DNA of 64,000 nucleotides from Candidatus Woesearchaeota archaeon (GTDB lineage: Archaea; Nanobdellota; Nanobdellia; Woesearchaeales; UBA10216). The stretch is taken from positions 16,001-80,000 of the forward strand of contig JACPTE010000024.1 of the NCBI GenBank assembly GCA_016192945.1. Direction: 5' to 3'. Positions 46,769 to 63,297 of the stretch are shown piece by piece. Position 1 is the first letter of the stretch, and every line of letters starts with the position of its first letter. The position numbers and the translations under genes are program-made. The notes beneath the pieces are model-generated. The model did not search any database, was not told the origin of the DNA, and was given only the letters and a program-made list of their open reading frames with translations.

Positions 46769-47968
46769 TCAATCCTGCTTTTTTTTATTGATGCCTGATG
46801 CTACTTCCTGGTACGCCTCCCTGAACGGCATTCCCTGCTTTACCAGCTTTGCAGCCTCCTCAGCGGTATAAAGCTCAGAAGTCATAGCTTCCCTGCATCT
46901 TTTCTCATTTACTTTCAAGCCATTGATTATCTGTGCCATTATATCTGCTGATGACCCTGCCATCTCTATGCCATTGAACAAAGGCTCTTTCGTGAGCTTA
47001 AAGTCTCCATTATAGCCTGAAGGGAGATTAAGGATAATGTTGTTTACAGCATCGCAATAGCTCTTCATCATGCCTGCCTTAGCCCGCGCAATTTCAAGCA
47101 CGTCAGGGTTTGCCTTATGGGGCATTATGGAGCTGCCCATTGAGAATTCCTTCGGAAGCTCAAAGTAGCCGAATTCAGATGACGTGAAAAGCCATAAGTC
47201 TGTTGACAGCTTGTTTATGTCAAGCATAAGATTGTTCAGGGAATTTAATACCATGAGCTCAAACTTACCGCGGCTGTTCTGGACGTAAAGCGTGTTGTTC
47301 TGGACCTTGTCAAAGCCGAGAAGCTTTTGGGTCAGGTTCCTGTCAATGTTTAGGACCGGCACGCCATATCCCGCAGCGCTGCCCAATGGATTCTGGTTTA
47401 TCAGCTTCTTTGATGAATTTATCAGAGCAAGGTCATCCCGGAATGATTCTGAAAAAGCCTCTGCCCATTTTCCAACAGCATAGGGCATCGCCTTGCGGAG
47501 GTGGGTGTATCCTGGAATTGGAATTTTGCTGTTCTTGCTGCTGAACTTGTTTAGCTCTTCAATCAATCTGCTGACAGCAGAAATAATTTCCTCAAGCTCG
47601 TGCCTTTCGTAAAGCCTCAAAGCAACAATTATCTGGTCGTTCCTTGAGCGGCCTGTGTGGATTTTCTTGCCTAGCTTCCCTAGCTTTTTTGTAAGATGGT
47701 TTTCAATAGCAGTATGGCAGTCCTCCTGCTCTACAGTGATTTTAAACTCGCCTTTGCTGTCCAGGAGCATTATCTCCTCAAGCCCCGCAATCAGCTGTGA
47801 CAATTCAGTTTTATTCAGTATGCCTGCCTTGTGCAGTGCTTTGGCATGGGCAATGCTTGCAATGCAGTCATATTTGACCAGCTTCTGGTCTATTATGTTC
47901 TCGTTGCCAACTGTGAACTTCTCTATTGCCTTGTCAATGTTGAAATCTTTCTTTTGCCAGAGCTTCAT
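46769..47968 (-). CDS. argH: Argininosuccinate lyase
   Basis: MKLW, EDCHTAIE, HTGRSRNDQ, PGYTHL, GSSIMPHKANPD. Confidence 0.96.
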   Translation of the reverse strand: MKLWQKKDFNIDKAIEKFTVGNENIIDQKLVKYDCIASIAHAKALHKAGILNKTELSQLIAGLEEIMLLDSKGEFKITVEQEDCHTAIENHLTKKLGKLGKKIHTGRSRNDQIIVALRLYERHELEEIISAVSRLIEELNKFSSKNSKIPIPGYTHLRKAMPYAVGKWAEAFSESFRDDLALINSSKKLINQNPLGSAAGYGVPVLNIDRNLTQKLLGFDKVQNNTLYVQNSRGKFELMVLNSLNNLMLDINKLSTDLWLFTSSEFGYFELPKEFSMGSSIMPHKANPDVLEIARAKAGMMKSYCDAVNNIILNLPSGYNGDFKLTKEPLFNGIEMAGSSADIMAQIINGLKVNEKRCREAMTSELYTAEEAAKLVKQGMPFREAYQEVASGINKKKQD

Positions 47969-47991: not shown

Positions 47992-49263
47992 TTAATAATA
48001 CTTCTTAATTTTATCAGATTTAGTTTTTACCTGATTGGCGAGCTTCATCTGGAAGCTCCACAGCTCAATGAATCCTGCACTCGCATTCTGGTTGAAAGAG
48101 TAGTCTTTCATGAATGTAACAAGGTTCTTGTCATAAAGCGCATTTTCAGAGTAAATAGCAACAGCTTCTGCCTTGCCCTTGTAAAGCTTTACAGTGACTG
48201 AGCCATTAACCTTTTCATTCAGCTTATTGCAGAAAATGTTTAGTTCATCTATCAACGGCTCAAGCCAGAATCCCCCATAGCAAAGATATGCCCATTTAGT
48301 GTCCACAATGCTCTTGAACTCGTTCTCCTGCCTTGTGCAGACATATTTCTCAATTACCTTGTGCGCCTCCAATATGATGGCTGCTGCCGGCATTTCGTAA
48401 ATGTCACGGTTCTTAAGACCAACAACCCTGTCTTCAATATGATAGCTTATCCCAATGCCGTGCTTTGCTCCTATCTTTGCCAATAACAGGATAATATCAG
48501 AAAGCTTCATTATTTTCCCTTCAACAGCAACAGGAAGTCCTTTCTCAAAATCAATCTTTATTAATTCGGGCTTGTCTGGAGCATTCTCAGGGGTGTTGCA
48601 TACAGCGAGTATTTTTTCAGCAGGAGGGATAAGACTGGGATCCTCAATTTCACCTGATTCTGCACTTGAGCCCCACATATTGTCATCATAGCTGTAAGGC
48701 TTGTCCTTGGTTGCTTTTACGGGAATGTTATTTTTCTTGGCATATTCAATCTCCTCATCCCTTCCCATGCTCCATTCACGGACTGGAGCGATGACTTTTA
48801 TCTTTGGACTGATGGTTATGGCAGTTGCTTCAATCCTCACCTGGTCATTTCCTTTTCCTGTGCATCCGTGTGCAATCGCATCTGCGCCTTCCTTTTCAGC
48901 TATTTCAACAGCAATCTTTGCAAGCAATGGCCTGCCCATTGCAGTTGCAAGATGATAAGCGCCCTGATATGAGGCATTGGCTTTTATGCCCTTTGCAACA
49001 TAATTATTAGCAAACTCGTCCTTGGCATCGACTACAAAAGCCTTTTTTGCACCAAGCTTTAATGCCTTTTTCCGGATTTCCTCCAAATCGTCACTATGCT
49101 GCCCAAGATCAACTGTGAGCGCAATTACCTCTGCATTATATTCCTCCTGAATCCACTTAAGCATTACAGAAGTGTCCAATCCGCCTGAATAAAGCAAAAC
49201 TACTTTCTTGACCTGTCCTTTTTCAGCTTCATAGCTTGCAACTTTGGAATATTCTTTTTTCAT
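47992..49263 (-). CDS. argG: Argininosuccinate synthase
   Basis: LYSGGLDTS, AHGCTGKGNDQVR, YS.DDNMWG, EDRVVGLK.R. Confidence 0.97.
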   Translation of the reverse strand: MKKEYSKVASYEAEKGQVKKVVLLYSGGLDTSVMLKWIQEEYNAEVIALTVDLGQHSDDLEEIRKKALKLGAKKAFVVDAKDEFANNYVAKGIKANASYQGAYHLATAMGRPLLAKIAVEIAEKEGADAIAHGCTGKGNDQVRIEATAITISPKIKVIAPVREWSMGRDEEIEYAKKNNIPVKATKDKPYSYDDNMWGSSAESGEIEDPSLIPPAEKILAVCNTPENAPDKPELIKIDFEKGLPVAVEGKIMKLSDIILLLAKIGAKHGIGISYHIEDRVVGLKNRDIYEMPAAAIILEAHKVIEKYVCTRQENEFKSIVDTKWAYLCYGGFWLEPLIDELNIFCNKLNEKVNGSVTVKLYKGKAEAVAIYSENALYDKNLVTFMKDYSFNQNASAGFIELWSFQMKLANQVKTKSDKIKKYY

Positions 49264-49274
49264 TTTTCCTCCAC

Positions 49275-49826
49275 TTATTTGAGCGTCATTATCATGGGTA
49301 TCTCATCACACAGTCCGTATTCCATGAGCCTACAGTCAGCGCAATCCTGCTGGTATTTTGAAGCAGGGAAATTTTGTGCTGTAACAAAGCCCCATCTTTC
49401 AAAAATAGGAACATTTTCTCTTTTCGTCAAGGTAAGCATCTGGGAGTGCCCCCTTGCCAAGGCCTCTTCTGCAACTGCCCTGACAAGCAATCCGCCAATG
49501 CCTCTTTTCTGGTATTGCCCATCAACAGCAAGAGTCCTCATTTCCGCAATATCTGCATATTCAACCAATGAATTGCATCCTATTATCCTGGGATTAGCAG
49601 CTACATAAAAGCCGTTCTGTAAAGTAACCTCGATCACCCTTTGCTCAGTTATTGGAAGTAGCATTCCTTTTGCCTCCAAAAAGCCGTTTGAAGCTATTGA
49701 AAACTTGTACTTGTCTGCCCAAGCCTTGATTTGAGGAGCATCAGCTAAGATAGCCTGCCTTACAATGCATGCAGCTGAAAAATCCGTTCCTCCACCGACT
49801 AATGCAAGGTCTTCTATCGTTGCCAT
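49275..49826 (-). CDS. GNAT acetyltransferase, short ArgA-like (paralog 1)
   Basis: AEMRTLAVD..YQKRGIGG; C-terminal DCADC...CDEIPM. Start moved to ATG 49826 because the upstream in-frame part is the promoter element. Confidence 0.82.
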   Translation of the reverse strand: MATIEDLALVGGGTDFSAACIVRQAILADAPQIKAWADKYKFSIASNGFLEAKGMLLPITEQRVIEVTLQNGFYVAANPRIIGCNSLVEYADIAEMRTLAVDGQYQKRGIGGLLVRAVAEEALARGHSQMLTLTKRENVPIFERWGFVTAQNFPASKYQQDCADCRLMEYGLCDEIPMIMTLK

Positions 49827-49849
49827 GTTTTCGGGAATCATCAATTGAT

Positions 49850-49906
49850 TTATAAGCCTATTGACCAAAACAGGACAAATAAGACATAGTTGTCTTAAAT
49901 AGGACA
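49850..49906 (-). promoter_or_regulatory. Arginine-cluster promoter/operator element, copy 1 (GNAT-argG-argH)
   Basis: TTATAA 49850-49855; palindromes TGACCAAAACAGGACA 49862-49877 and TGTCTTAAATAGGACA 49891-49906. Confidence 0.85.
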
Positions 49907-49920
49907 TCTACTTATTTGTC

Positions 49921-50161
49921 TAGTTTTAGTGAAATAGTATGTAGATATCCACAACATTGTTAATCTGCCTTAAATTAATTCCCTGAAGCACGAATCTGTA
50001 AAGGTTTTCAACAGAAGACCTGTGCTCTTTCGGCTTCGCTCCAAAAGCAGAATAGGCTTTTCTCCACGAATTTATTTTCGGGTGTTCTGATATGAGGGGA
50101 TTATTATGGGTTTCCCTGGCTTTTTTCTGTTCTGTTAACAGCTCTTGATAAATTTCTTCAT
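49921..50161 (-). pseudogene. Truncated, frameshifted stand-alone B3/4 (PheRS-beta-like tRNA editing) gene remnant
   Basis: Manual translation: EEIYQELLTEQKKARETHNNPLISEHPKINSWRKAYSAFGAKPKEHRSSVENLYRFVLQGINLRQINNVVDIY, then (N)TISLK after restoring one base. No in-frame start. Confidence 0.8.
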
Positions 50162-51042
50162 TTTTCCTCCAGCAATTTCAGCATTATAGCCTTCTGCACA
50201 TGAAGCCTGTTCTCAGCCTGCTCAAAAACAATCGAGTTCTGGCTGTCTATCACTTCATCAGTTATCTCGAAGCCCCTATGGGCGGGGAGACAATGCATTA
50301 TCAAGGCATTCTCCGGAACAAGCCCCCTGTTCAGCTGATAAGGAGAAAAAACATTGTGCCTTTTCTCAGCTTCCTTTTCCTGGCCAAGAGAAACCCAGGT
50401 GTCTGTATAAACAATATCTGCCCCTTCAACAGCTTCCTTTGGATTGTTTGTGAAACTCAGAAGGCCTGTTTTTTTTGCAGATTCCATTATTCCCATATTT
50501 GGCTCATAGCCCTTTGGCGTTGCAACAGCAATCCTTATGCCTGTTTTTGTGCAGGCAGCGATAAGCGAATTGCAGACATTGTTGCCATCTCCGATAAATG
50601 CCAGCTTTGATTTGAGGCCTTTCTTTTCCTTGATAGTCATTACATCAGCCAATGCCTGGCATGGGTGCTCAAAGTCAGAAAGCCCGTTTATAACAGGAAC
50701 ACCTGCAACCTTGGCCATCTTTTCTACATCGCTATGTGAATAGACACGAACCATTATTATATCTGCATATCCTCCTATGCATTTTACCTCATCAAAAATA
50801 TTGCCAACTGCAAAGTTGCTGTCCTTCCAGTCAAGGAATGCGGCATGACCTCCAAGTTGTGTCATCCCAATTTCAAATGAAATCCTTGTCCTTGTTGAGG
50901 TTTTCTGGAAAATCATCACAAGGCTTTTGCCTTTCAAGGCTCCAGAATAATTCTCAGGACTCTTTTTGAGCTTTTCAGCTAATGAAATGATTTCATTTAC
51001 CTCTTTATTATCCAAATCCTTGATTGCAAGCAGATGATTCAT
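50158..51042 (-). CDS. argF: Ornithine carbamoyltransferase
   Basis: FQKTSTRTRISFE, NGLSDFEHPCQ, YTDTWVSLG, MHCLPAHRG, AENRLH. Confidence 0.97.
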   Translation of the reverse strand: MNHLLAIKDLDNKEVNEIISLAEKLKKSPENYSGALKGKSLVMIFQKTSTRTRISFEIGMTQLGGHAAFLDWKDSNFAVGNIFDEVKCIGGYADIIMVRVYSHSDVEKMAKVAGVPVINGLSDFEHPCQALADVMTIKEKKGLKSKLAFIGDGNNVCNSLIAACTKTGIRIAVATPKGYEPNMGIMESAKKTGLLSFTNNPKEAVEGADIVYTDTWVSLGQEKEAEKRHNVFSPYQLNRGLVPENALIMHCLPAHRGFEITDEVIDSQNSIVFEQAENRLHVQKAIMLKLLEEK

Positions 51043-51051
51043 TTTTCCTGT

Positions 51052-51531
51052 TCAATTGTTTTCAATACTGCAAGATATTAGTTCAGTTTTACAGTTTGGA
51101 TAGCGCGAGCATTTAATGTCATGTGCAAGCATCATTACGTTTTCGGGTATGCTTTCCCTGTCAACAACCTCAAGCTTCAACTTCTTGAAAAACCCTGGCT
51201 TTTCAGTGAATGCTATAAGTTTCTGTACTCCCATTTCCTTTGCTTCCTGCATTGCCATCTCTACCAGCCTTGTCCCTATGCCTTTACCCTGATGCTTCTC
51301 TTTCACCGCCAGACTCCTGAGTTCAGCATAGCCATCCAGAACTATATGCAGGGCTATGCATCCCACAATTTCTCTCCCTATCTTGGCTATGAAGTATTCC
51401 CTTATGCTGCTATACACTTCGCTGAAAGGCTTTGGGGAAACTCCCTTGCCTGTAAAGCTGTTTATAAGGAAATTTATCTCCCCTGCATTGGATAGCTTCG
51501 CTTTTCCAAAAGTCACTTCAGGATTTTCCAT
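51052..51531 (-). CDS. GNAT acetyltransferase, short ArgA-like (paralog 2)
   Basis: YSSIREYFIA, VGCIAL, YAELRSLAV..KHQGKGIGTRLV; start moved to ATG 51531. Confidence 0.85.
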   Translation of the reverse strand: MENPEVTFGKAKLSNAGEINFLINSFTGKGVSPKPFSEVYSSIREYFIAKIGREIVGCIALHIVLDGYAELRSLAVKEKHQGKGIGTRLVEMAMQEAKEMGVQKLIAFTEKPGFFKKLKLEVVDRESIPENVMMLAHDIKCSRYPNCKTELISCSIENN

Positions 51532-51554
51532 GGAAGGTAGTAAAGTTAGCTTTC

Positions 51555-51611
51555 TTATAAGGTTATTGACCAAAACCAGACTAATTAGACATAAATGTCC
51601 TAAATAAGACA
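51555..51611 (-). promoter_or_regulatory. Arginine-cluster promoter/operator element, copy 2 (GNAT-argF)
   Basis: Aligns without gaps to copy 1 (47/57 identical by hand count); distal palindrome TGTCCTAAATAAGACA 51596-51611. Confidence 0.85.
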
Positions 51612-51634
51612 AAACCTATTCTCCCTTCTTTGCT

Positions 51635-52810
51635 TTAGCTCCTGTAGCTTGCATTTATGCCAATGTACTTTTCTGTGAGGTCGCAGGTATATGCCGTGTG
51701 CTCTCCGTTTCCCTGTCCCATAACCGCTTTTATTTCTATGGATTTGTGTTTTAGATAATTCTCAGCATTGTTTTCATTGAATTTAAGGGGGTTGCCATTT
51801 TTGAAAACACATATTTTTCCCAGGAATATGGAAATTCCTTTTTCATTGGCACCTGATCCGCTTGCTCCTATGGCCGCAATTATACGCCCCCAATTGGCAT
51901 CATTGCCGTAAATGGCTGTCTTGACCAGATTTGAGTTTGCTATCCTCATTGAAATCTTCTTGGCTGCAATGCCACTTTTTGCCCCTGCAACCTTTACTGT
52001 TATCAGCTTTGTAGAGCCTTCCCCGTCTGCTACGATTTTTTTTGCAAGTGCCAGGCAAACATTTCCCAGTGCCAAAGAGAAGTTTTTTGCTTCTCTCATT
52101 GCCTTTAGCTCCTTATTTCCTGCCTCTCCACTGGACATTATGGCAGCACAGTCATTTGTGCTCATATCCCCATCAACGGTAATTGAGTTAAAAGTCGCAT
52201 CGCAGCAGCTTTTCCATAATTTCTCAAGCAATGCCTGGCTTATCGCCGCATCGGTAATGACGATTGCCAGCATTGTTGCCATATTGGGCGCAATCATGCC
52301 GCTTCCCTTTGCAATGCCTGCTATGGTGACTTTCTTTTTTGAAATCCAAATCTTTTTTAAGACAATCTTTTTCCTGGTGTCGGTGGTCATTATCGCTTCT
52401 GCAGCATTTCGAAGCCCTGCACTGCCTAGCTCAAAAACGGCTTTTTTAACTCCCCTTTTTATCAGCTGGACAGGAAGCCTTTTACCTATTATTCCTGTTG
52501 ACATGACCAAAATTTCATTCAGGCCTGTTTTAAGCTCTTTTGCAGCATGAGCTTGAATAGCCAGGGCATCTTTCAGTCCTTGTTTTCCTGTGCAGGCGTT
52601 TGCAACCCCGCTGTTTACTATGATTGCTTTTTTCTTTTTTTCCCTCATGGCTCTGATTGAAATTTTTACCGGGGCTGCTTTTATTTTGTTTGTAGTAAAT
52701 AGCACTGATGTTTTACATGGATTTTCTGAATAGATTATTGCAAAATCTTTTTTCCGGTTTTTCTTTATTCCGCAGCCGACTCCGGCAGCCAGGAATCCCT
52801 TGGGCATCAT
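51635..52810 (-). CDS. argJ: Ornithine acetyltransferase
   Basis: PKGF, NSGVANACTG, STGIIG, KGSGMIAPNMATML, DGDMSTND, DGEG.TK, DANWGRI. Confidence 0.96.
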   Translation of the reverse strand: MMPKGFLAAGVGCGIKKNRKKDFAIIYSENPCKTSVLFTTNKIKAAPVKISIRAMREKKKKAIIVNSGVANACTGKQGLKDALAIQAHAAKELKTGLNEILVMSTGIIGKRLPVQLIKRGVKKAVFELGSAGLRNAAEAIMTTDTRKKIVLKKIWISKKKVTIAGIAKGSGMIAPNMATMLAIVITDAAISQALLEKLWKSCCDATFNSITVDGDMSTNDCAAIMSSGEAGNKELKAMREAKNFSLALGNVCLALAKKIVADGEGSTKLITVKVAGAKSGIAAKKISMRIANSNLVKTAIYGNDANWGRIIAAIGASGSGANEKGISIFLGKICVFKNGNPLKFNENNAENYLKHKSIEIKAVMGQGNGEHTAYTCDLTEKYIGINASYRS

Positions 52811-53727
52811 AGTAGTCCCTCGCTTTCTTTTATTCCGAACATAATATTCATGTTCTGGACGGCCTGTCCACTTGCTCCTTTTAACAGGTTATCAAGTGCC
52901 GATATTATCACTATCCTGTTGTTGTGGTCTGCTTCAAAGCCCCCTATGATGCAATAATTGGTGTTTCGGGCATCATGGAGGGTGGGTAGCCTGTCAACAA
53001 CCTTGACGAATTGTTCCTTCTCATAATGCTTTATGAATTCCGTCTTAACATCCCCGGCATCAACAGCCTCGTTCATTATGAAGTGCGAAGTGCAGAGTAT
53101 TCCCCTGAATAATGGAAGCACATGGGGTGTGAATGAAACTTTTTTCCCTAACGCTTTTTCAATCTCTTTTATGTGCTCGTGATTTGTGAGCTGATAGGGC
53201 ATGACATTTTCCTTCAGGTTTTCAGGTGAATTTCTTTGGCTCGGCGTTTTTCCTGCTCCGCTATATCCTGACTTGCAGTCAAATATGATGTTTTTGAGGT
53301 TATTGTTGCCCAGCATCGGCAGAGCAGAAAGTATTGCGGCTGTCGCGTAACAGCCCGGATTTGCTACAAATCTGGTCCTGCTTATTTTCTCACGGTTGAG
53401 TTCAGGAAGTCCATAAACAGCTTCGCTGCCCAAGCGGTAATCTGGGCTTAAGTCAATTATACGCGCCGTTACTTTCGGAACAATTTTCTTTGCCATTCCC
53501 TCCCGTACTGCGAGGAACACTATGTCAGCGATTTTATTTATTTTATCCATGCCGTAGTTTGTGAATGAAATATCACAGTCATATTCGGGATATATATCAC
53601 TGACTTTTTTCCCGTATTTGCTTTCTGAGTTGGCAGCCACTATCTCTACTTTATTGTGTCTGCTCAGTATTTTTATAAGTTCAAATCCTGTATAGCCTGA
53701 CGCGCCTATTATTGCAGCTTTAATCAT
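52807..53727 (-). CDS. argC: N-acetyl-gamma-glutamyl-phosphate reductase
   Basis: GASGYTG, YGLPE, ANPGCY, SGYSGAG, DNLLKGASGQAVQN. Confidence 0.96.
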   Translation of the reverse strand: MIKAAIIGASGYTGFELIKILSRHNKVEIVAANSESKYGKKVSDIYPEYDCDISFTNYGMDKINKIADIVFLAVREGMAKKIVPKVTARIIDLSPDYRLGSEAVYGLPELNREKISRTRFVANPGCYATAAILSALPMLGNNNLKNIIFDCKSGYSGAGKTPSQRNSPENLKENVMPYQLTNHEHIKEIEKALGKKVSFTPHVLPLFRGILCTSHFIMNEAVDAGDVKTEFIKHYEKEQFVKVVDRLPTLHDARNTNYCIIGGFEADHNNRIVIISALDNLLKGASGQAVQNMNIMFGIKESEGLL

Positions 53728-54881
53728 TTTAGCACTCCATGCAGGATATCCATTCCTTCAAGAATTTCCGCCTCTGTTATTGTGAGTGATGGAAGCATTC
53801 TCAGCGTTTTCTCAGTGCATTTGTTTATCAAAAGTCCTTTCTTGATGCATTTTTCAGCAACATTTTCGGCATCAACAATGATGTCCATTCCAGCCATAAG
53901 ACCTTTTCCCCTAAACTGGGAGATCAAATCACTCTTGGATTTTAGTTCTGCAAGATTTTTTAGGATGATCGCTCCTTTGTTGTTTGCTTTTTCCACCAGC
54001 CCGTTTTTTTCCATATACGCTATTGTAGCCAAGGCTGCTGTGCATGCAAGCGGATTTCCTCCAAAAGTGCTTCCGTGGTCTCCTTTGCCGAATGAGTCAG
54101 CGATTTCTTCTGCAGCGATTGTCACGCCTATGGGCACGCCATTGGCCAGGCCTTTTGCAGAAGTGACTATGTCTGGCTTTATCTTGCTGTGCTGATAGCA
54201 AAAGTACTTGCCTGTCCTTCCATTTCCAGTCTGCACCTCATCAGCTATAAGGAGAATTCCTTTTTCGTCACAAATTTCTCTTACAGCCTTAAGGTATGAA
54301 TTATGCGGCACTATGACTCCAGCTTCACCCTGTATTGGCTCTACAATGAATGCCGCTGTATCTTCGGTAACTGCTTTACGCAGAGCTTCCGAATCATTAT
54401 ATGGTATGTGCATGAACCCGGGAACCAAAGGCTTAAACGGCTCAGTGTATTTGGCTTTTGAAGTGGCTGACAATGCACCAAATGTGCGCCCGTGAAATCC
54501 GCCATCGGCTGCTATTATGCCTGGCTTTCCTGTGTGCTTTCTTGCAAGCTTTATTGCTGTTTCATTCGCCTCTGCTCCTGAATTGGAGAAGAAACTCTTA
54601 TCAAGGCTTGAAAGCAGGGCTAGCTTCTGGGAGAGCTTTATTTGAGGTTCTGTGTAGTACAAGTTTGTTGTAGTAATTATTTTTCGGATTTGCTCAATAA
54701 TAGCGGAATTGACTTCTTCATTGCAATACCCAACGCTGCAGGTTCCTAGAGCTCCTGCAAGGTCAAGGTAGCTGTTTCCATCAATGTCTAATGCGCGGCA
54801 TCCTATACCTCGCTCTATTAGAAGGCTTATCCTATTATATGTCTGCATCAGACTTTTATTTGATTTTTGCAAATAAGTCAT
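53724..54881 (-). CDS. argD: Acetylornithine aminotransferase
   Basis: NSGAEANE, FHGRT, EPIQGEAG, DEVQTG.GRTG, AKGL, HGSTFGGNPL. Confidence 0.93.
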   Translation of the reverse strand: MTYLQKSNKSLMQTYNRISLLIERGIGCRALDIDGNSYLDLAGALGTCSVGYCNEEVNSAIIEQIRKIITTTNLYYTEPQIKLSQKLALLSSLDKSFFSNSGAEANETAIKLARKHTGKPGIIAADGGFHGRTFGALSATSKAKYTEPFKPLVPGFMHIPYNDSEALRKAVTEDTAAFIVEPIQGEAGVIVPHNSYLKAVREICDEKGILLIADEVQTGNGRTGKYFCYQHSKIKPDIVTSAKGLANGVPIGVTIAAEEIADSFGKGDHGSTFGGNPLACTAALATIAYMEKNGLVEKANNKGAIILKNLAELKSKSDLISQFRGKGLMAGMDIIVDAENVAEKCIKKGLLINKCTEKTLRMLPSLTITEAEILEGMDILHGVLK

Positions 54882-54903
54882 GTTTCACCGTAAAATTCTA
54901 ATA

Positions 54904-55734
54904 TCATAGCCTGCTGGCAGGTAAAAAGGCAGTTCTTCTGGTGGTGTGGTTCTTTATGACTATTGTCCCACATACTGATTGGTCAGTAAGGCTTTGCAGC
55001 ATTCCAGACGGGTCAACTATGAAAACGGACGGAGCCCTGTCCATCTTGCTTAGCATTTCAATAATCACTTTAACTTTCAGAAGCATGCCGCCATTCAGTG
55101 CATTTTTTTTGACTAGTTCAGGATAGCCCGATTCTGGGTACAGCTTTTCAATCAGGTTTCCTTCAGCATCCCTGACTCCTCCTTGCTCAGTCACCAGTAT
55201 GAATTTTTTTGGATTAAGCGCCTTCACAAGCTCCTTTGATGCCACGTCTGCATTGATATTGAATTGCTGTCCTGACTTATCAATGCCAATTGGGCAGATT
55301 ACCGGCAATTTTCCATCAATTAATGCGGTTTTTATTGCCTCCAGGTTTACTTTCTTGACATGCCCAACAAATCCGAGGTCCTTGCCATTTATTTTCCAAT
55401 GCTTTGTGCATTCGAAAATATCATATAACACTGTGACGTTCCCGCCTTTTTTCGCTACTTCTTCAGCCAATAAAATGCAGCTCTTTTTGAGCTGTTCAAT
55501 CACTATGCGCAGTTGTTTTTTCCCAGTTACCCTAAGACCCTGTACCTTCTTTGAACTCAGATTTTTCTTTTTCAGCTTTTCATCAATCTGAGGCCCGGCT
55601 CCGCATACTACTATTGAACATAGCCCAAGGCTCTGCGCATAGCTTAAGGCTTCGCCTAGCTCTTGAAGCTGGTTGATTATAACCTTCCCTCCAATCTTTA
55701 TCAATGCAAGTTCCGGATTATTCGAGTCGTTCAT
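54904..55734 (-). CDS. argB: Acetylglutamate kinase
   Basis: IKIGG, GAGPQI, GLRVT, LGFVG, NINAD, GGMLLK; start set at ATG 55734. Confidence 0.92.
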   Translation of the reverse strand: MNDSNNPELALIKIGGKVIINQLQELGEALSYAQSLGLCSIVVCGAGPQIDEKLKKKNLSSKKVQGLRVTGKKQLRIVIEQLKKSCILLAEEVAKKGGNVTVLYDIFECTKHWKINGKDLGFVGHVKKVNLEAIKTALIDGKLPVICPIGIDKSGQQFNINADVASKELVKALNPKKFILVTEQGGVRDAEGNLIEKLYPESGYPELVKKNALNGGMLLKVKVIIEMLSKMDRAPSVFIVDPSGMLQSLTDQSVCGTIVIKNHTTRRTAFLPASRL

Positions 55735-55775
55735 TGTCAAGCTGGTTGTTGATTGAAGTATTATTCTGACATCGC

Positions 55776-55832
55776 TTATAATCCTATTGACCAAAACAGG
55801 ACAAAATAAACAAAAATGTCCAAAACAAAACA
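55776..55832 (-). promoter_or_regulatory. Arginine-cluster promoter/operator element, copy 3 (argB-argD-argC-argJ)
   Basis: Gap-free match to copy 1 (45/57 by hand count); shares the invariant TATTGACCAAAAC; lies in the divergent argB/regulator spacer. Confidence 0.82.
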
Positions 55833-55906
55833 TTTTAATAGTTAATAGTTAATCGTTTGTAGTTTGCAGTATGAACTACTAACTACTTACCACTTACCTA
55901 TTTAGG

Positions 55907-56530
55907 ATGAACATCACAAAGGCTGTTGAAAAGCATGTTTCAGGAAGGCCAAGCATCAAGGACTGCCTCAAGAGGAAGCTGATAAACTACTCTGCGCTCT
56001 CAAGGCAGATTGGCTCGGAGCTTGGAATAAGCAATTTCGATGCAATCCTTATAGCCTGCAGGAGATATGCTGAAAAGCTCAAGTCAGAGGAGGTTCTGGA
56101 AAAAAGAATCATAGACATCCTGAAGAAAAGCAGGATAGGTGTCAAGAACAGGATTGTTGCTGTTGTGATTGAAAAAACGATATATTATAACAGCCTTCTG
56201 GAATTGGAGAAGGAGATAAGGAAAAAAGATGAAACTCTCCATATCATGGAAGGGGCAAATGCGATTACTCTTGTAACAAGCTCGGACTACACTGATAATA
56301 TAAGGAAGCTGTTCAAGGGTCAGATAATAAAGATAAGCAAGGACCTCGCTGAAATAAATGTGAAGAGCCCAAGGGAACTGGAGAATACGCCTGGAGTCCT
56401 CTCACAGATGTGCTCCCTTTTTGCTGAGCGGGGGATAAACATTGTTGAAAGCATGAGCTGCTGGACTGACACGCTGTTCGTAATAAATGAAAGCGACATC
56501 GCAAAAGTGATGGATGCATTGAAGTTCTGA
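55907..56530 (+). CDS. HTH + ACT-domain protein, predicted amino-acid-responsive regulator
   Basis: N-terminal LINYSALSRQI...AILIACRRY HTH-like region; C-terminal TPGVLSQMCSLFAERGINIVESMSCWTDTLFVI ACT motif. Confidence 0.8.
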   Translation: MNITKAVEKHVSGRPSIKDCLKRKLINYSALSRQIGSELGISNFDAILIACRRYAEKLKSEEVLEKRIIDILKKSRIGVKNRIVAVVIEKTIYYNSLLELEKEIRKKDETLHIMEGANAITLVTSSDYTDNIRKLFKGQIIKISKDLAEINVKSPRELENTPGVLSQMCSLFAERGINIVESMSCWTDTLFVINESDIAKVMDALKF

Positions 56531-56537
56531 TTGAGAG

Positions 56538-56999
56538 TCAGTATTTTATGACATAGTCTATTTCATCAAGGTTTATAACGATTCCTGTGCATCCTGAAAT
56601 GCAGCTTTTTTTCAGGCTTTCAGGAAGCTCATTATCCTTTGCCACTCTGAACTTGAATTTCCTGAAGAAATCAGGGCTTTTTGTAAAGCCAACTGCATGC
56701 CTTGCATCAAGGAGCTTTGCCTCGTACAGGGCAAGCTCAACGAGCCTTGTCCCTATTCCCTTTCCTCGGAATCCCTGGTTGACAGCAAGGCTGCGGAGCT
56801 CTGCATAATCAGAGTCAATTATGTCAACTGCTATAACGCCAACTATCCTGCCGCTGTCCTTCGCAACAAAGAAGCTCCTTATTTCATGCAGGATGTCATC
56901 AATGCTTCTGGAGAGTATGCGTGCATTGTCAATCAGCAGCTTGATTTCTGCAGCATCAGAAACGCGGGCCTTGCAATAGACTATGTTCGGGCTTGGCAT
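56538..56999 (-). CDS. GNAT acetyltransferase, short ArgA-like (paralog 3)
   Basis: IRSFFVA, YAELRSLAV..FRGKGIGTRLVE; closely similar to paralog 2. Confidence 0.85.
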   Translation of the reverse strand: MPSPNIVYCKARVSDAAEIKLLIDNARILSRSIDDILHEIRSFFVAKDSGRIVGVIAVDIIDSDYAELRSLAVNQGFRGKGIGTRLVELALYEAKLLDARHAVGFTKSPDFFRKFKFRVAKDNELPESLKKSCISGCTGIVINLDEIDYVIKY

Positions 57000-60362: not shown

Positions 60363-60725
60363 ATGGCAGTTTTACCCCAGGAAATACAGGTTTGGTATGT
60401 CCTTCCTGCGTTGAGGAGGGAGATGGCGCGGATGCTTATAGGGCATCATGGAATGCCGCAGAAAAAGGCAGCTGCCATTCTGGGGGTTTCTGAAGGGGCA
60501 GTTTCGCAGTACTTGAGCTCAAAAAGGGGGGCTAATGTCAAATTCAGCAGGCCGGTTATGCAGAACATCAAGGCTGCAGCAAACAGGATAGCTGAAGACA
60601 ACTCAACAGCAATACATGAGCTGATAAAGCTCTCTGAGATGGATTCTGTAAAGCGCATGATATGCGAACTGCACATTGAGCAGGACCCGGCAATCAAGCG
60701 GGAATGCAATATCTGCTTCAGGTGA
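60363..60725 (+). CDS. HTH transcriptional regulator with C-terminal Cys/His cluster
   Basis: [37 protein letters not shown]...CNIC. Confidence 0.88.
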
Positions 60726-60729
60726 AATT

Positions 60730-62139
60730 ATGACAGAGCAAGCATTAAACCTGCTGAACTCAGACTATGGGCAGAAATATGGATTCAGGGACCCTGAACA
60801 ATATGTAAGAAAGTTTGACAGGGGGCTGACCAGGCAGGCGGTTCAGGAAATATCATCTCTCAAGAATGAGCCTGAGTGGATGAGGAACTTCAGGCTTAAG
60901 TCTCTTGAAATATTCTTCAGGAAGAAAATGCCTGCGTGGGGGGCTGACCTGAGCCACATTAATTTTGATGATATCGTGTATTATCTCAGCCCCACTGAAA
61001 GGAAAAGCGCGTCTTGGGATGATGTTCCTGCGAATATCAAGAGCACTTTTGAGAAGCTGGGGATTCCAGAGGCTGAAAGGAGGTTCCTTGGAGGTGTTGG
61101 TGCGCAATATGATTCGGAGACAGTTTACCACAAGCTGAGAAAGGACCTTGAGGAAAAAGGAATAATATTCACGGACACTGACACAGCACTCAAGGAGCAC
61201 GAGGGCATATTCAGGAAATACTTTGGCACTATAGTTCCCCCTCAGGACAACAAGTTTTCTGCATTGAACAGCGCTGTATGGAGCGGTGGGAGCTTTATTT
61301 ACATTCCCAAAGGTGTCAAGGTTGATGTCCCATTGCAGGCATATTTCAGGATTAATGCGAAGAACATGGGGCAATTTGAGAGGACTCTTATTATAGCTGA
61401 TGAGGGCTCTTCTGTCAACTATGTTGAAGGTTGCACTGCACCCATCTACTCCAGCGACTCCCTCCATGCTGCGGTTGTTGAGCTTATAGCCCTGAAGAAC
61501 GCCAGGATAAGGTATACCACAATCCAGAACTGGTCAGGCAATGTCTACAATCTTGTGACCAAGCGGGCATATGCGCACGAACATGCAGTTGTTGAGTGGA
61601 TTGACGGGAATTTGGGCTCAAAGGCAACGATGAAGTATCCGAGCGTCTACCTGATGGGAAGGAATGCTAAGGCAGACATACTTTCAGTGGCATTTGCAGG
61701 AAAGGGGCAGCACCAGGACGCTGGAGGGAAGGCGTACCATTTCGCTCCGGATACCACCTCAACAATAATCTCAAAGTCAATAAGCAGGGATGGGGGAAGG
61801 ACATCATACAGGGGCCTGCTTCATGTAGAGAAGGGGGCTGAGAATGTGAAGTCAAGCGTAAGGTGCGATGCGCTGATTCTTGATGAGGAATCAAGGTCCG
61901 ATACATATCCGGTGATGGAAATAGATGAGGAAAACGTCACTATAACCCACGAGGCAACTGTGGGGAAAATTGGGGAGGACCAGATATTCTACCTTATGTC
62001 GCGGGGGCTTACAGAGCAGCAGGCAGTGACTATGATAGTGCTTGGATTTGTAGAGCAGTTTACCAAGGAGCTGCCGATGGAATATGCGATTGAGCTTAAC
62101 AGGCTCATACAGCTTGAGATGACTGGCTCTGTAGGGTAG
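60730..62139 (+). CDS. sufB: Fe-S cluster assembly scaffold SufB
   Basis: [37 protein letters not shown]; start ATG 60730 after GGTGA. Confidence 0.97.
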
Positions 62140-62154
62140 CCTTGGGGGGTTTTC

Positions 62155-63297
62155 ATGCATAAAGAGCTTTTCATCAAGAGTGAGGAATCAGAGCCTGATT
62201 GGCTGAAGAGGGAAAGGCAGGAGGCTTTTCAGATTTTCATCCAGCAGCAAATCGGGCAATCAGCATACGCTGACATTGGTATAGACTTCAACAGGGCGAT
62301 TTCCGAAGCAGGAAAAACAGGCATTATCTGCAGGGGCGGCGATAAAACAATGGTAAGGGACATAACTGCAGCAATCATGGAAAATCAGGAATTAATGGGA
62401 TTTCTCTCTCAAAAGCTGGTAAGTGATGATGGCTGGATGGCAGCCATGAACACTGCGTGTTTCAATTCAGGCTCATTCATAAGAGTCCCAAAAAACACCT
62501 CAATGAGGCTGTTTAGGAACTTAGTGTCTGGAAATTCTGGCTTCACAAGGACAATCATAGTGGTTGAGGAGGGGGCTGGATTGGAGCTGATTGATGAATT
62601 CACGTCAGGTGCGGATAATTATTTTCACAATGACATGACTGAGCTTCACATAAAAGACAACGCAAGGGTGAGCTACACTTCAATACAGAACCTTGGTGAT
62701 GGGGCTGCATTTATCAGCTGCAGGAAAGCGATTGTGGGAAGAAACTCAAAAATATCGTGGAGTATCATTGGCTCAGGCTCAAAATTTTCAAAAAGCAGGC
62801 GGGAAACAATCCTTGATGCAGAAGGGGCTGAGGTAACGGAAGCAGAGGTAATCCTTACGCGGGGCAGCCAGAGAATGGATTCTGATGCCAGCATACTGCA
62901 TAATGCCAGGAATACGCGGAGCTGGTCCTCAACCAGGGGTGTGCTTGATGGCAGTTCAAGGCAGACTGCTCACGGCATGGTCAGGATAGGGGAGCATGCC
63001 TCAGGCACCAATTCGTTCCTGGAAGAGCATTCAATCCTGCTCAGCAAAGATGCAAAGGCAGACTCTATGCCTGCACTGGAAATCCTCACAAATGATGTCA
63101 GGGCGAAGCACGCTGCTACATGCTCCCAGATTGATGATGAAAGGCTCTTTTACATCATGGCACGCGGATTGTCCAGGGAAGACTCAAAGAAGCTGATTGT
63201 TGAGGGGTTCATAAAGTCGGCCATATCAAGAATGCCAGAACAAGATGAGATTATAGGGATGACGTGCGAGAAATGGCTTCAGGAACTATGCAGCTAA
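62155..63297 (+). CDS. sufD: Fe-S cluster assembly protein SufD
   Basis: Beta-helix; P.LEI..NDV.AKHAAT, LFYIMARGL. Confidence 0.9.
   Translation: MHKELFIKSEESEPDWLKRERQEAFQIFIQQQIGQSAYADIGIDFNRAISEAGKTGIICRGGDKTMVRDITAAIMENQELMGFLSQKLVSDDGWMAAMNTACFNSGSFIRVPKNTSMRLFRNLVSGNSGFTRTIIVVEEGAGLELIDEFTSGADNYFHNDMTELHIKDNARVSYTSIQNLGDGAAFISCRKAIVGRNSKISWSIIGSGSKFSKSRRETILDAEGAEVTEAEVILTRGSQRMDSDASILHNARNTRSWSSTRGVLDGSSRQTAHGMVRIGEHASGTNSFLEEHSILLSKDAKADSMPALEILTNDVRAKHAATCSQIDDERLFYIMARGLSREDSKKLIVEGFIKSAISRMPEQDEIIGMTCEKWLQELCS

Follow-up and report, generated by a model that had tools for sequence, protein, structure and literature searches.

A 57-bp palindrome cassette heads three arginine operons of a Woesearchaeota-type archaeon and adjoins the gene of a candidate arginine-sensing ACT regulator

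Background

Repression by the end product is the usual logic for biosynthesis genes, and ACT domains usually sense the end products of pathways. In bacteria a single regulator, ArgR/AhrC, serves all arg operons through tandem operators and is autoregulated; ArgR is a hexameric repressor whose 18-bp ARG boxes lie 3 bp apart. Lrp typically binds arrays in which the sites are spaced by about 30 bp, and TrpY, which belongs to COG2150, is an HTH-ACT protein of about 165 aa with a single ACT.

TrpY of Methanothermobacter thermautotrophicus is described as binding boxes between divergent promoters and inhibiting its own transcription (PMC6737238). The operators of activators lie just upstream of BRE/TATA in the accounts cited here (PMC5937170, PMC3597687, PMC6737238). 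LysM of Sulfolobus, an Lrp/AsnC protein, is described there as binding 15-16-bp semi-palindromic sites in this position, with an accessory second site, and as activating biosynthesis genes in the absence of the amino acid, lysine being its main effector (PMC3597687). Tar (TK0271) of Thermococcus kodakarensis activates three amino-acid operons via a palindrome upstream of BRE/TATA (PMC6737238), and TFB-RF1 (PF1088) of Pyrococcus furiosus binds a palindrome directly above a weak BRE and recruits TFB (PMC5937170). Finally, the arginine sensor CASTOR1 contains four ACTs, of which ACT2 and ACT4 flank the Arg pocket, and binds arginine via a Gly-containing loop and an Asp (PMC5020642).

Results and discussion

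The window, by which we mean the whole 64,000-nucleotide stretch of DNA that was analysed, belongs to a 1.07-Mb Woesearchaeota-type genome and contains three operons that read, by NCBIfam, argA-like GNAT-argG-argH, argA-like GNAT-argF and argB-argD-argC-argJ:

46769..47968, minus strand: argH, argininosuccinate lyase (NCBIfam, over cut-off)
47992..49263, minus strand: argG, argininosuccinate synthase (NCBIfam, over cut-off)
49275..49826, minus strand: ArgA-like GNAT acetyltransferase 1 (NCBIfam)
50158..51042, minus strand: argF, ornithine carbamoyltransferase (NCBIfam, over cut-off)
51052..51531, minus strand: ArgA-like GNAT acetyltransferase 2 (NCBIfam)
51635..52810, minus strand: argJ, ornithine acetyltransferase (NCBIfam, over cut-off)
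52807..53727, minus strand: argC, N-acetyl-gamma-glutamyl-phosphate reductase (NCBIfam, over cut-off)
53724..54881, minus strand: argD, acetylornithine transaminase (NCBIfam, over cut-off)
54904..55734, minus strand: argB, acetylglutamate kinase (NCBIfam, under cut-off, best-matching model being the kinase part of PRK04531)
56538..56999, minus strand: third ArgA-like GNAT, convergent with the regulator gene (upstream cassette score -18)

An earlier note on this DNA had claimed that one gap-free 57-bp element stands before each of these operons, and our analysis confirms it: there is one repeat family of three copies, two of which are 82% (47/57) and 79% (45/57) identical to copy 1, and TATTGACCAAAAC is common to all three. 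The layout given in that note, TTATAA, a 6-nt gap, palindrome 1, a half-site and palindrome 2, recurs in every copy, with palindromes of 16 bp, the second of which is set off from the first by 29 nt, start to start. The copies below were each recovered by repeat search, PWM and the relatives' motif:

49850..49906, minus strand: cassette copy 1, heads GNAT-argG-argH (TATA 49850-49855, palindrome 1 49862-49877, half-site 49882-49886, palindrome 2 49891-49906)
49911..49933, no strand assigned: mirror arm of copy 1, by which the array becomes symmetric about palindrome 2 (83% complementarity to 49861-49883)
51555..51611, minus strand: cassette copy 2, heads GNAT-argF (TATA 51555-51560, palindrome 1 51567-51582, half-site 51587-51591, palindrome 2 51596-51611)
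55776..55832, minus strand: cassette copy 3, heads argB-D-C-J (TATA 55776-55781, palindrome 1 55788-55803, half-site 55808-55812, palindrome 2 55817-55832)

The mirror arm likely adds a further half-site and a third, degenerate palindrome. The consensus proposed earlier, TG(T/A)CY-N6-RGACA, fits four of the six palindromes but neither palindrome 1 of copy 2, which ends AGACT, nor palindrome 2 of copy 3, which ends AAACA; across relatives, palindrome 2 is better given as TGTYY-N6-RRACA.

Genome-wide, the cassette is confined to the three arg operons. A PWM built from any two copies scored the held-out third at 57.6-62.4 bits and the best other site in the genome at 13.2-18.0 bits, a gap which argues that the cassette is not a product of chance. 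Likewise, a de novo motif trained on 81 upstream regions of other genomes only, leaving out the near-duplicate L007 as well as L001, ranked the same three copies first (50.5, 37.1 and 36.6 bits; next 12.8). The upstream stretches of carA, carB, pur and pyr genes tested in this genome, so named from the ORF list, scored -12 to -39, in agreement with the earlier claim that none of these genes carries the element, and carAB thus falls outside the cassette regulon. The third GNAT gene probably also lies outside it, since no cassette stands upstream. Single palindromes gave 14 other regex matches in the genome; those at C23:1104, C16:1014 and C34:15774 were rejected as operators because they lie inside genes, and that at C32:32188 is intergenic but lacks a cassette. 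A sigma-70 promoter and terminator scan, which is not informative for an archaeon, stayed at shuffle level.

None of the three copies contains a stop codon and each is in frame with the gene that follows it, the ORFs 49275..49907, 51052..51612 and 54904..55833 start at the repeat edge, and copy 1 folds well as RNA (z -4.9), as might be expected of an RNA element or of a coding extension common to the three genes. In the relatives, however, no more than 10 of 47 loci have an open frame through the cassette, and these are spread over all three frames, the spacing of the two palindromes shifts by one base (29 in 26 sites, 30 in 35), and copies 2 and 3 fold no better than shuffles (z -0.4 and -0.9). 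On these grounds we rejected both a coding N-terminal extension and an RNA element, whose probability we regard as negligible. The cassette would lie outside the predicted mRNA because it is upstream of the TATA box, and the GNAT 1 and GNAT 2 transcripts are likely leaderless, the ATG of each being separated by 29 nt from the TATA, counted from its first T.

Divergent from argB-D-C-J, with cassette copy 3 in the spacer between them, lies the gene of the candidate regulator:

55827..55840, plus strand: predicted regulator promoter, a BRE-like A-rich AAAACA (right arm of palindrome 2) followed by TATA-like TTTTAATA (sequence; same arrangement in relatives)
55907..56530, plus strand: candidate regulator, 207 aa, predicted homodimer (Pfam, predicted structure, fold comparison)

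The protein combines a basic, DUF7523-like four-helix head (about residues 1-66) with an aspartokinase-type tandem ACT (residues 70-207). Of the description as an HTH-ACT regulator the ACT part stands, as PF01842, PF13840 and PF22629 all score over cut-off and the predicted structure (pLDDT 96) agrees; the head, by contrast, has no clear structural or Pfam match that would make it an HTH. Its best fold matches are FF domains (Z 6.1), followed by homeodomains and sigma-4 (4.3-5.1), and Foldseek with the head alone found nothing at E<=0.001, which does not imply a new fold; nor do the 25 best-ranked Pfam families of the 146 members include a classical HTH family. A PDB search with the single sequence returned nothing better than E 0.05, and a profile search returned only ACT/aspartokinase-type chains at E<0.06.

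Residues 70-207 superimpose on aspartokinase ACT pairs with Z 14.3 (rmsd 2.2, 132 aligned), and Foldseek matches the protein to aspartokinase regulatory domains at E 5e-9. The parallel with CASTOR1 drawn in the earlier note therefore holds for the tandem-ACT fold, but the likeness is middling (Z 7.8, and 8.1 for CASTOR2) and aspartokinase is closer; moreover, the regulator has two ACTs and CASTOR1, as described, four, and neither CASTOR1 nor the aspartokinase pair carries a DNA-binding head. Members of the Arg clade keep Gly163 and Asp188, the latter a putative counterpart of Asp304 of CASTOR1. In ACT pairs of the aspartokinase type the amino acid is bound at a dimer interface through the PG...NI motif; here Gly163 is invariant and Asn178 nearly so, both in or beside the predicted dimer interface. 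The dimer scores 0.43 against 0.00 for the best control, a mark that 20 of 30 solved pairs attain, as against 1 of 23 single chains, and its runs share at least 93% of contacts with pLDDT of at least 81; likeness to solved ACT dimers may be the cause of this score.

In architecture and length (about 210 aa) the regulator resembles the DUF7523 (PF24367)/UCP014439 ACT-family proteins, to which no function is assigned, although it falls just under the PF24367 cut-off (25.2 bits against 27). Among 146 aligned relatives 127 match this model at E<=0.05 (best 7e-16), and Atlas neighbours carry it on 11-57% of members; look-alikes scoring 0.94-0.95 come from clusters of Thermoplasmatota, Nanobdellota and Bacteroidota. 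An Atlas search for the 'IEAGHIYTNE' target protein gave no usable match.

With ArgR/AhrC the proposed system would share a single regulator for all arg operons, tandem operators and autoregulation. Different from it, however, the ArgR model PF01316 is absent from the Pfam list of the regulator at E<=0.1 and has no match in this genome (92% complete; the control rings in 9 of 14 genomes). The earlier statement that the window lacks ArgR and Lrp thus extends to the whole genome for ArgR, but three to four Lrp/AsnC genes lie outside the window, one of them 3 kb past its end. The Lrp/AsnC models PF13404 and PF01037 matched elsewhere in genome scans and not the regulator (C5:71907-72527), which sets it apart from LysM, and no TrpY-type model is among the NCBIfam matches. 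Like TrpY, it would be a small archaeal regulator of an amino-acid pathway whose gene stands head-to-head with the operon it controls, with boxes between the two promoters and inhibition of its own transcription. TrpY, however, is reported as a repressor of trp and has another operator, and its single ACT contrasts with the four-helix head and two aspartokinase-type ACTs of the regulator.

Of the refuting conditions named in the earlier note, the two that concern sequence do not hold: the motif is confined to the arg operons, as shown above, and regulator, motif and arg genes occur together across the order. Among 251 genomes, which are related and thus not independent, 50 contain both regulator and argG, 4 argG only, 34 the regulator only and 163 neither, so that the regulator is found in 50 of 54 argG-positive genomes versus 34 of 197 others. 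Of 98 clade-A genes, 64 have a cassette scoring at least 15 in the 160 nt upstream and 79 have one anywhere in the fetched stretch, versus none of 23 in clade B; a core arg gene is present in 55 of 98 clade-A stretches versus 0 of 31 others (L029, truncated, was dropped, L138 was excluded from clade counts, and one further locus set, which gave taxon labels only, is outside all counts). In most orthologues the cassette heads the regulator's own gene or operon. Where the regulator gene lies outside the arg stretch, 8 of 13 stretches from regulator-positive genomes have a site before an arg gene (six scoring at least 15, two 8.5-9.3) and five do not (G260, G234, G081, G180 and G252, the last ending at a contig end). 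Three of the four regulator-negative genomes lack a cassette near argG; G136 has one of 18.4 bits before argG, yet only regulator paralogues were found in it (92% complete, 130 contigs).

The paralogues carry different elements. The Arg palindrome precedes 73/98 clade-A, 0/23 clade-B and 1/7 clade-C genes, and TGTTA-N6-TAACA, across which clade-B genes face lysine genes, precedes 0/98, 20/23 and 0/7, respectively (shuffle averages 0.75 and 0.015); the clades come from quick tree searches with SH-aLRT support only. A later set of 41 paralogues showed the Lys pattern at 9 of its 15 clade-B genes and at none of the other 26; the Arg pattern occurred at 1 of the 41. Sister proteins with different elements adjoin lysine and aromatic amino-acid genes. 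This change of operator with regulator clade points to the protein family itself as the binder, and we consider it very likely that the 207-aa regulator binds the cassette. One might instead suppose that another factor, such as an Lrp/AsnC protein, binds it, the role of the ACT protein being confined to that of a co-regulated sensor or an allosteric subunit: Lrp/AsnC genes exist in the genome, the site spacing is of the kind typical of Lrp, the head lacks a clear DNA-binding match, and the ACT pair resembles the aspartokinase regulatory subunit. An unlinked factor, however, leaves the clade-dependent operator switch unexplained. In most orthologues the cassette precedes the ACT protein's own gene or operon, and it is lacking near argG in three of four orthologue-less genomes; in addition, the basic residues R52/R53 are common to all clades and R33 of the head differs between the Arg and Lys clades. 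We therefore judge this alternative very improbable.

As to the effector of the regulator, the cassette heads operons with arginyl-tRNA synthetase in L036, L040 and L074 and one with an N-acetylglutamate synthase NAT domain in L069, argG being found in none of these; in the argG-positive L066 the divergent gene is arginine deiminase-like and the cassette score low. Several argG-less, regulator-positive genomes have the cassette before racemase operons, a D-Ala-D-Ala dipeptidase or an ABC binding protein, which have no known arginine link. An activator and autorepressor responding to ornithine, citrulline, N-acetylglutamate or several basic amino acids, rather than to arginine alone, would fit the retention of the regulator in the 34 genomes without an argG match, often facing amino-acid racemase operons, and LysM is likewise described as responding to many amino acids (PMC3597687). 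The arginyl-tRNA synthetase operons, on the other hand, point to arginine itself, and the paralogue clades pair with end-product pathways, in keeping with the usual role of ACT domains. We hold such other effectors to be distinctly unlikely and arginine, judged from these sequence contexts, to be the likely one.

Whether the regulator activates or represses may be read from promoter geometry. A TATA could be matched at 44 of 64 sites, and at 41 of these palindrome 1 lies 5-7 nt from it. By a crude BRE model built from the source genome only, the arg-side BREs of 29 relatives have their median at the 20th percentile of 192 promoters of that genome, whose own three arg-side BREs lie at percentiles 13, 51 and 23, whereas the regulator-side median (n=33) is at the 97th; palindrome 2 ends AAACA in 31 of the 33 cases where it abuts the regulator TATA. 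The arg promoters thus seem to have weak BREs just below the operator and the regulator promoter a strong BRE inside it, an asymmetry that favours activation of the arg promoters together with autorepression.

The operator's place directly above BRE/TATA at a fixed distance is that of the activator class. LysM agrees in site size, place, second site and proposed activation without the amino acid, but its main lysW site is reported 11 bp upstream of BRE/TATA (PMC3597687). Tar too serves three operons, and its half-site TGGACA resembles the GGACA arm of the cassette; its 20-bp site TGGACA-N8-TGTCCA, however, has the opposite arm order, and Tar is described as a MarR-like protein of the aromatic pathway that is not released by end products (PMC6737238). 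TFB-RF1 works by the mechanism proposed for the arg promoters here, but its site is TCTG-N5-CAGA, its targets are others, and the available account describes no amino-acid sensor for it (PMC5937170).

The same protein and operator could also work as an arginine-dependent repressor, after the logic of ArgR or TrpY, the liganded dimer at BRE/TATA blocking TFB. Such hindrance is conceivable, as a dimer ending 6 nt from the TATA could have a footprint overlapping the BRE; end-product repression is customary for biosynthesis genes, and TrpY is described as repressing divergent promoters from boxes between them (PMC6737238). Yet the 16-bp site does not cover BRE, TATA or start but sits above the 6-nt BRE, which is the activator position in the published examples (PMC5937170, PMC3597687), its distance from the TATA is tightly held, and it is the arg-side BREs that seem weak and the promoter with its BRE inside the operator that seems strong. 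We think such a repressor unlikely and activation of the arg genes by the regulator, on sequence and analogy, rather probable.

Taken together, we propose, at a rough probability of 0.57, that the regulator is an arginine-sensing transcription factor which acts on the cassette, activates the three arg operons under arginine scarcity and represses its own gene. The 57-bp element is an array of 16-bp palindromes that adjoins a TATA box and is conserved in relatives, and the divergently encoded 207-aa protein likely binds it; at the arg promoters this protein may recruit TFB to the seemingly weak BRE in a TFB-RF1-like manner, and at its own promoter, with the BRE inside the operator, it probably represses. 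The interpretation of the earlier note, an amino-acid-sensing factor with a new operator, is thereby supported.

Conclusions

Our literature search, with subscription journals largely outside its coverage, found no description of this regulator family, nor did it turn up a transcription factor described for the arginine pathway of these archaea or a function given to DUF7523. Viewed jointly, the data make it somewhat more probable than an even chance that DUF7523-ACT proteins are an unrecognised transcription factor family, combining an aspartokinase-type sensor with a head without clear solved relative, whose pathway-specific paralogues in Woesearchaeota-type archaea act on their own operators by pathway activation and autorepression, the arginine member being ArgR-independent and parallel to CASTOR1. 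The paralogues would divide into arginine, lysine/aspartate-family, and aromatic and probably leucine regulators, each with a TG-initiated operator of its own in an equivalent position next to a divergent TATA, and the aspartokinase ACT pair would have been reused independently for arginine sensing.

Protein, operator, target set and sign of regulation are named and can be tested with a 207-aa protein and short oligonucleotides, and the paralogue-operator pairs offer a ready specificity code for head swaps and ligand panels. If the proposal is true, regulated amino-acid biosynthesis has been retained in small-genome Woesearchaeota-type archaea, with the arginine member as their ArgR-independent arginine regulator; a role would be assigned to a widespread family of unknown function, and new amino-acid biosensors would follow.

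A conserved cassette heads the arg operons

A repeat finder run on the window detected a single gap-free family of 57-nt repeats with three copies (49850, 51555 and 55776; identity of the latter two to copy 1, 82% and 79%), each of which heads a minus-strand operon, namely GNAT-argG-argH, GNAT-argF and argB-argD-argC-argJ. NCBIfam models recognise the products of argG, argH, argF, argD, argC and argJ above their cut-offs; argB and the ArgA-like GNATs also match, but under the threshold. The arg cluster thus named also holds three such GNATs in addition to ArgJ, and argB looks like the kinase portion of a NAGS-K fusion.

Features of the window (strand in brackets)
4184-42182: large cluster of purine, one-carbon, pyrimidine and carbamoyl-phosphate genes before the arg genes (names from translations)
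49275-49826 (-): ArgA-like GNAT
51052-51531 (-): ArgA-like GNAT
55871-55882 (+): three-codon ORF, Met-Asn-Tyr-stop, 38 nt downstream of the TATA-like box of the regulator gene
55907-56530 (+): regulator gene, 207 codons, divergent from argB-argD-argC-argJ
56538-56999 (-): third ArgA-like GNAT, convergent with the regulator gene, likewise in L003-L005 (stretches around regulator relatives), without cassette
60363-63297: small HTH gene heading a sufB/sufD-like operon (names from translations, HTH alone Pfam-tested)

Every copy has the same layout: TTATAA, 6 nt of spacer, palindrome 1 (16 bp, imperfect), a half-site and, placed 29 nt after palindrome 1, palindrome 2. At copies 1 and 2 the mRNAs are likely leaderless, given that the ATG and the first T of the TATA box are 29 nt apart.

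The element is exclusive to these operons in the genome (G000; 1.07 Mb, 41 contigs). Matrices built from any two copies score the third at 57.6-62.4 bits versus 13.2-18.0 bits for the best other site, and a 45-nt motif learned de novo from the 150 nt upstream of 81 regulator orthologues of other genomes, with G000 left out, ranks the three copies first (50.5, 37.1 and 36.6 bits; next site 12.8); within the training set itself, 56 of the 81 regions reach at least 18 bits. The three 57-bp copies described in the earlier note are therefore borne out, as is their absence before pur, pyr and car genes for those tested, whose upstream regions, like that of the third GNAT, score only -12 to -39. A lone good palindrome, TGACCAATATAGGACA, lies intergenically near a transposase-like ORF (G000:C32:32188-32203) without the rest of the cassette.

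All three cassettes lack stop codons and share the frame of the gene downstream, as a shared coding extension would, but the frame is open, in any frame, in only 10 of 47 relative loci and the palindrome spacing shifts by one base. An RNA element was rejected too, as copy 1 alone folds as RNA and copies 2 and 3 do not. On these grounds the cassette is a DNA element.

The divergent gene encodes a tandem-ACT protein

Pfam places ACT domains over cut-off in the 207-aa regulator and DUF7523 just under it; DUF7523 matches 127 of 146 aligned relatives (E<=0.05). Its Atlas neighbours are 'UCP014439, ACT family' and short 'aspartate kinase family' clusters, and Atlas clusters from Thermoplasmatota and Bacteroidota are a likely source of members in cultured hosts. 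The predicted structure (pLDDT 96) has four helices followed by two ACT domains, and residues 70-207 are closer to the regulatory domains of aspartokinase (Z 14.3, rmsd 2.2, 132 aligned) than to CASTOR2 (Z 8.1) and CASTOR1 (Z 7.8). The ACT half of the earlier designation 'HTH-ACT' is thus confirmed, whereas an HTH head is plausible only, because folding of the head by itself gives no clear match among solved structures (best Z 6.1). The head is basic, with 12 K/R versus 7 D/E in 62 residues, and R52 and R53 are common to all clades of the family. A predicted homodimer is supported by a model score of 0.43 against 0.00 for the best control (contacts at least 93% alike between runs; pLDDT at least 81), a mark that 20 of 30 solved pairs but also 1 of 23 single chains reach; the score may reflect likeness to solved ACT dimers.

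G000 has this single family member, and close homologues with names are mostly from Candidatus Woesearchaeota or Nanoarchaeota/Nanoarchaeia, which suggests a like placement for G000. The three-codon ORF sits near the distance at which orthologues start (about 30 nt); the real ATG, 36 nt further on, also begins Met-Asn, and the mini-ORF may stem from a local duplication or act as a small upstream ORF.

Regulator, cassette and arg genes co-occur

Among 251 genomes of the order (completeness at least 85%; orthologue threshold E<=1e-30), the orthologue occurs in 84 and argG in 54: both in 50, argG only in 4, regulator only in 34 and neither in 163. The regulator thus occurs in 50 of 54 argG-positive genomes, or 47 of 51 with the unpublished G141, G203 and G205 left out; kin genomes are not independent, so that a Fisher p-value overstates the association, and the argG search can miss (G149 carries an argG-like match in its stretch L050). 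Of 98 orthologous (clade-A) genes, 55 have a core arg gene in the stretch fetched around them, versus 0 of 31 paralogues. Cassettes of at least 15 bits lie within 160 nt of 64 of the 98 and anywhere in the stretch of 79, and at many remaining loci the cassette is further up, heading the operon, for instance ahead of a phosphotransferase gene.

Twenty argG stretches were sampled for sites in trans and as controls. In thirteen the genome is regulator-positive but its regulator lies outside the stretch; six of these have a site of at least 15 bits ahead of an arg gene, two a weaker one in the right place (9.3 and 8.5), and five none there (G260, G234, G081, G180 and G252, the last cut by a contig end). 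Of the four regulator-negative genomes, three (G069, G125 and G215) lack a cassette site in the argG stretch; G136 has one at 18.4 bits although only paralogues were found there, and is either a counter-example or an assembly gap.

In nine loci (L031, L032, L034, L038, L044, L047, L054, L063 and L079; Pfam-tested in L031 and L054) the regulator directly follows an APH/fructosamine-kinase-like phosphotransferase gene, most with a full or partial cassette further upstream; the phosphotransferase may have an arginine-pathway role. The L008 stretch holds a 46-bit cassette, and its gene divergent from the orthologue (L008:2-400), without Pfam hit, starts like what we take to be the COG2403/ArcE arginine synthetase family.

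The operator changes with the protein clade

A quick tree of 129 members resolves clade A (98 rows, support 99) and the paralogous clades B (23, 99) and C (7, 98). The pattern TG[TA]YY-N6-RRACA (Arg) precedes 73/98, 0/23 and 1/7 genes of clades A, B and C, and TGTTA-N6-TAACA (Lys) 0/98, 20/23 and 0/7, both patterns having been picked after viewing the same data (shuffle averages, 0.75 and 0.015). In 41 paralogues fetched later, the Lys pattern stands before 9 of the 15 clade-B genes and none of the 26 others, the Arg pattern before 1 of all 41.

Clade B stands opposite aspartokinase in 17 of 23 cases, or dapB/dapA. In L026-L028, L030, L112, L122-L124, L126, L128, L130-L140, L258, L262 and L275 the Lys palindrome lies about 5 nt from the divergent TATA, opposite aspartokinase, dapB or dapA, which makes these paralogues candidates for a lysine/aspartate-family regulon. 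A clade-C subclade (L114, L283, L284, L285) faces DAHP synthase or anthranilate synthase by Pfam, and L125 presumably a LeuA-like gene, judged by a motif. These five loci carry TG[AGT]CA half-sites beside the divergent TATA and are candidate aromatic and leucine regulons. Such a half-site lies 4-6 nt from a divergent TATA in 11 of 21 new clade-C genes, a pattern picked after viewing them.

No other indirect evidence for DNA binding by the family is as strong as this clade-linked change. An unlinked binder such as Lrp would leave it unexplained. The earlier statement that the window holds no ArgR or Lrp stands, and for ArgR extends to zero matches in G000 (92% complete); three to four Lrp/AsnC genes do exist there, all outside the window.

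Promoter geometry and the sign of regulation

Across 64 cassettes the palindrome spacing is 29 in 26, 30 in 35 and 28 in 3. A regex finds the target TATA for 44 of them (20 unmatched), and in 41 of these 44 palindrome 1 ends 5-7 nt away from it. The distance between palindrome 2 and the TATA of the regulator gene itself is 0-2 nt in 40 cassettes and 10-12 nt in 15. By a crude BRE model of 192 G000 promoters, the median of the target-side BREs is at the 20th percentile (n=29; G000's own three, 13, 51 and 23) and that on the regulator side at the 97th (n=33). Since palindrome 2 ends in AAACA in 31 of the 33 cases abutting the regulator TATA, its right arm is the BRE.

According to PMC5937170, archaeal repressors bind within the promoter or downstream and activators upstream of BRE/TATA, and TFB-RF1 rescues weak BREs; LysM (PMC3597687) and Tar (PMC6737238) activate from upstream of BRE/TATA. 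The cassette resembles all three in operator position, and the regulator locus resembles TrpY in gene layout. From operator position, the BRE contrast and these precedents we infer that the regulator would activate the arg genes from an operator above a probably weak BRE and repress its own gene, whose BRE the operator would cover. A dimer 6 nt from the TATA could also block TFB.

The effector

Our best guess for the effector is arginine. In the alignment G163 is invariant and N178 nearly so, as expected of an ACT amino-acid site. Differences between the Arg and Lys clades include E115, T121, C185 and D188, all in the predicted dimer interface; in CASTOR1, Asp304, a possible counterpart of D188, binds the arginine guanidinium (PMC5020642). 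In genomes that lack an argG match, some cassette-headed operons contain arginyl-tRNA synthetase (L036, L040, L074) or an N-acetylglutamate synthase NAT domain (L069), but the cassette also stands before racemase operons and other genes without known arginine link. Often under the cassette in such genomes is a gene for a 250-aa protein with the motif I(E/V)(A/S)GHIYT (L072:3885-4682, L075:1342-2115, L085:3788-4564, L087:2120-2857, L046:1951-2718, L154), usually followed by an Asp/Glu-family racemase or PLP enzyme; it has no Pfam and no usable Atlas match.

By the tests made the regulator is not ArgR, Lrp or CASTOR, and we found no description of the family, operator or regulon in the literature searched, largely outside subscription journals. 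Taken together, the cassette is a real conserved regulatory element and the regulator its well-supported candidate partner, in a genome whose biosynthesis is unusually rich for 1.07 Mb. The regulator would be an archaeal transcription factor that responds to amino acids, within a family of paralogues that would each serve their own pathway.
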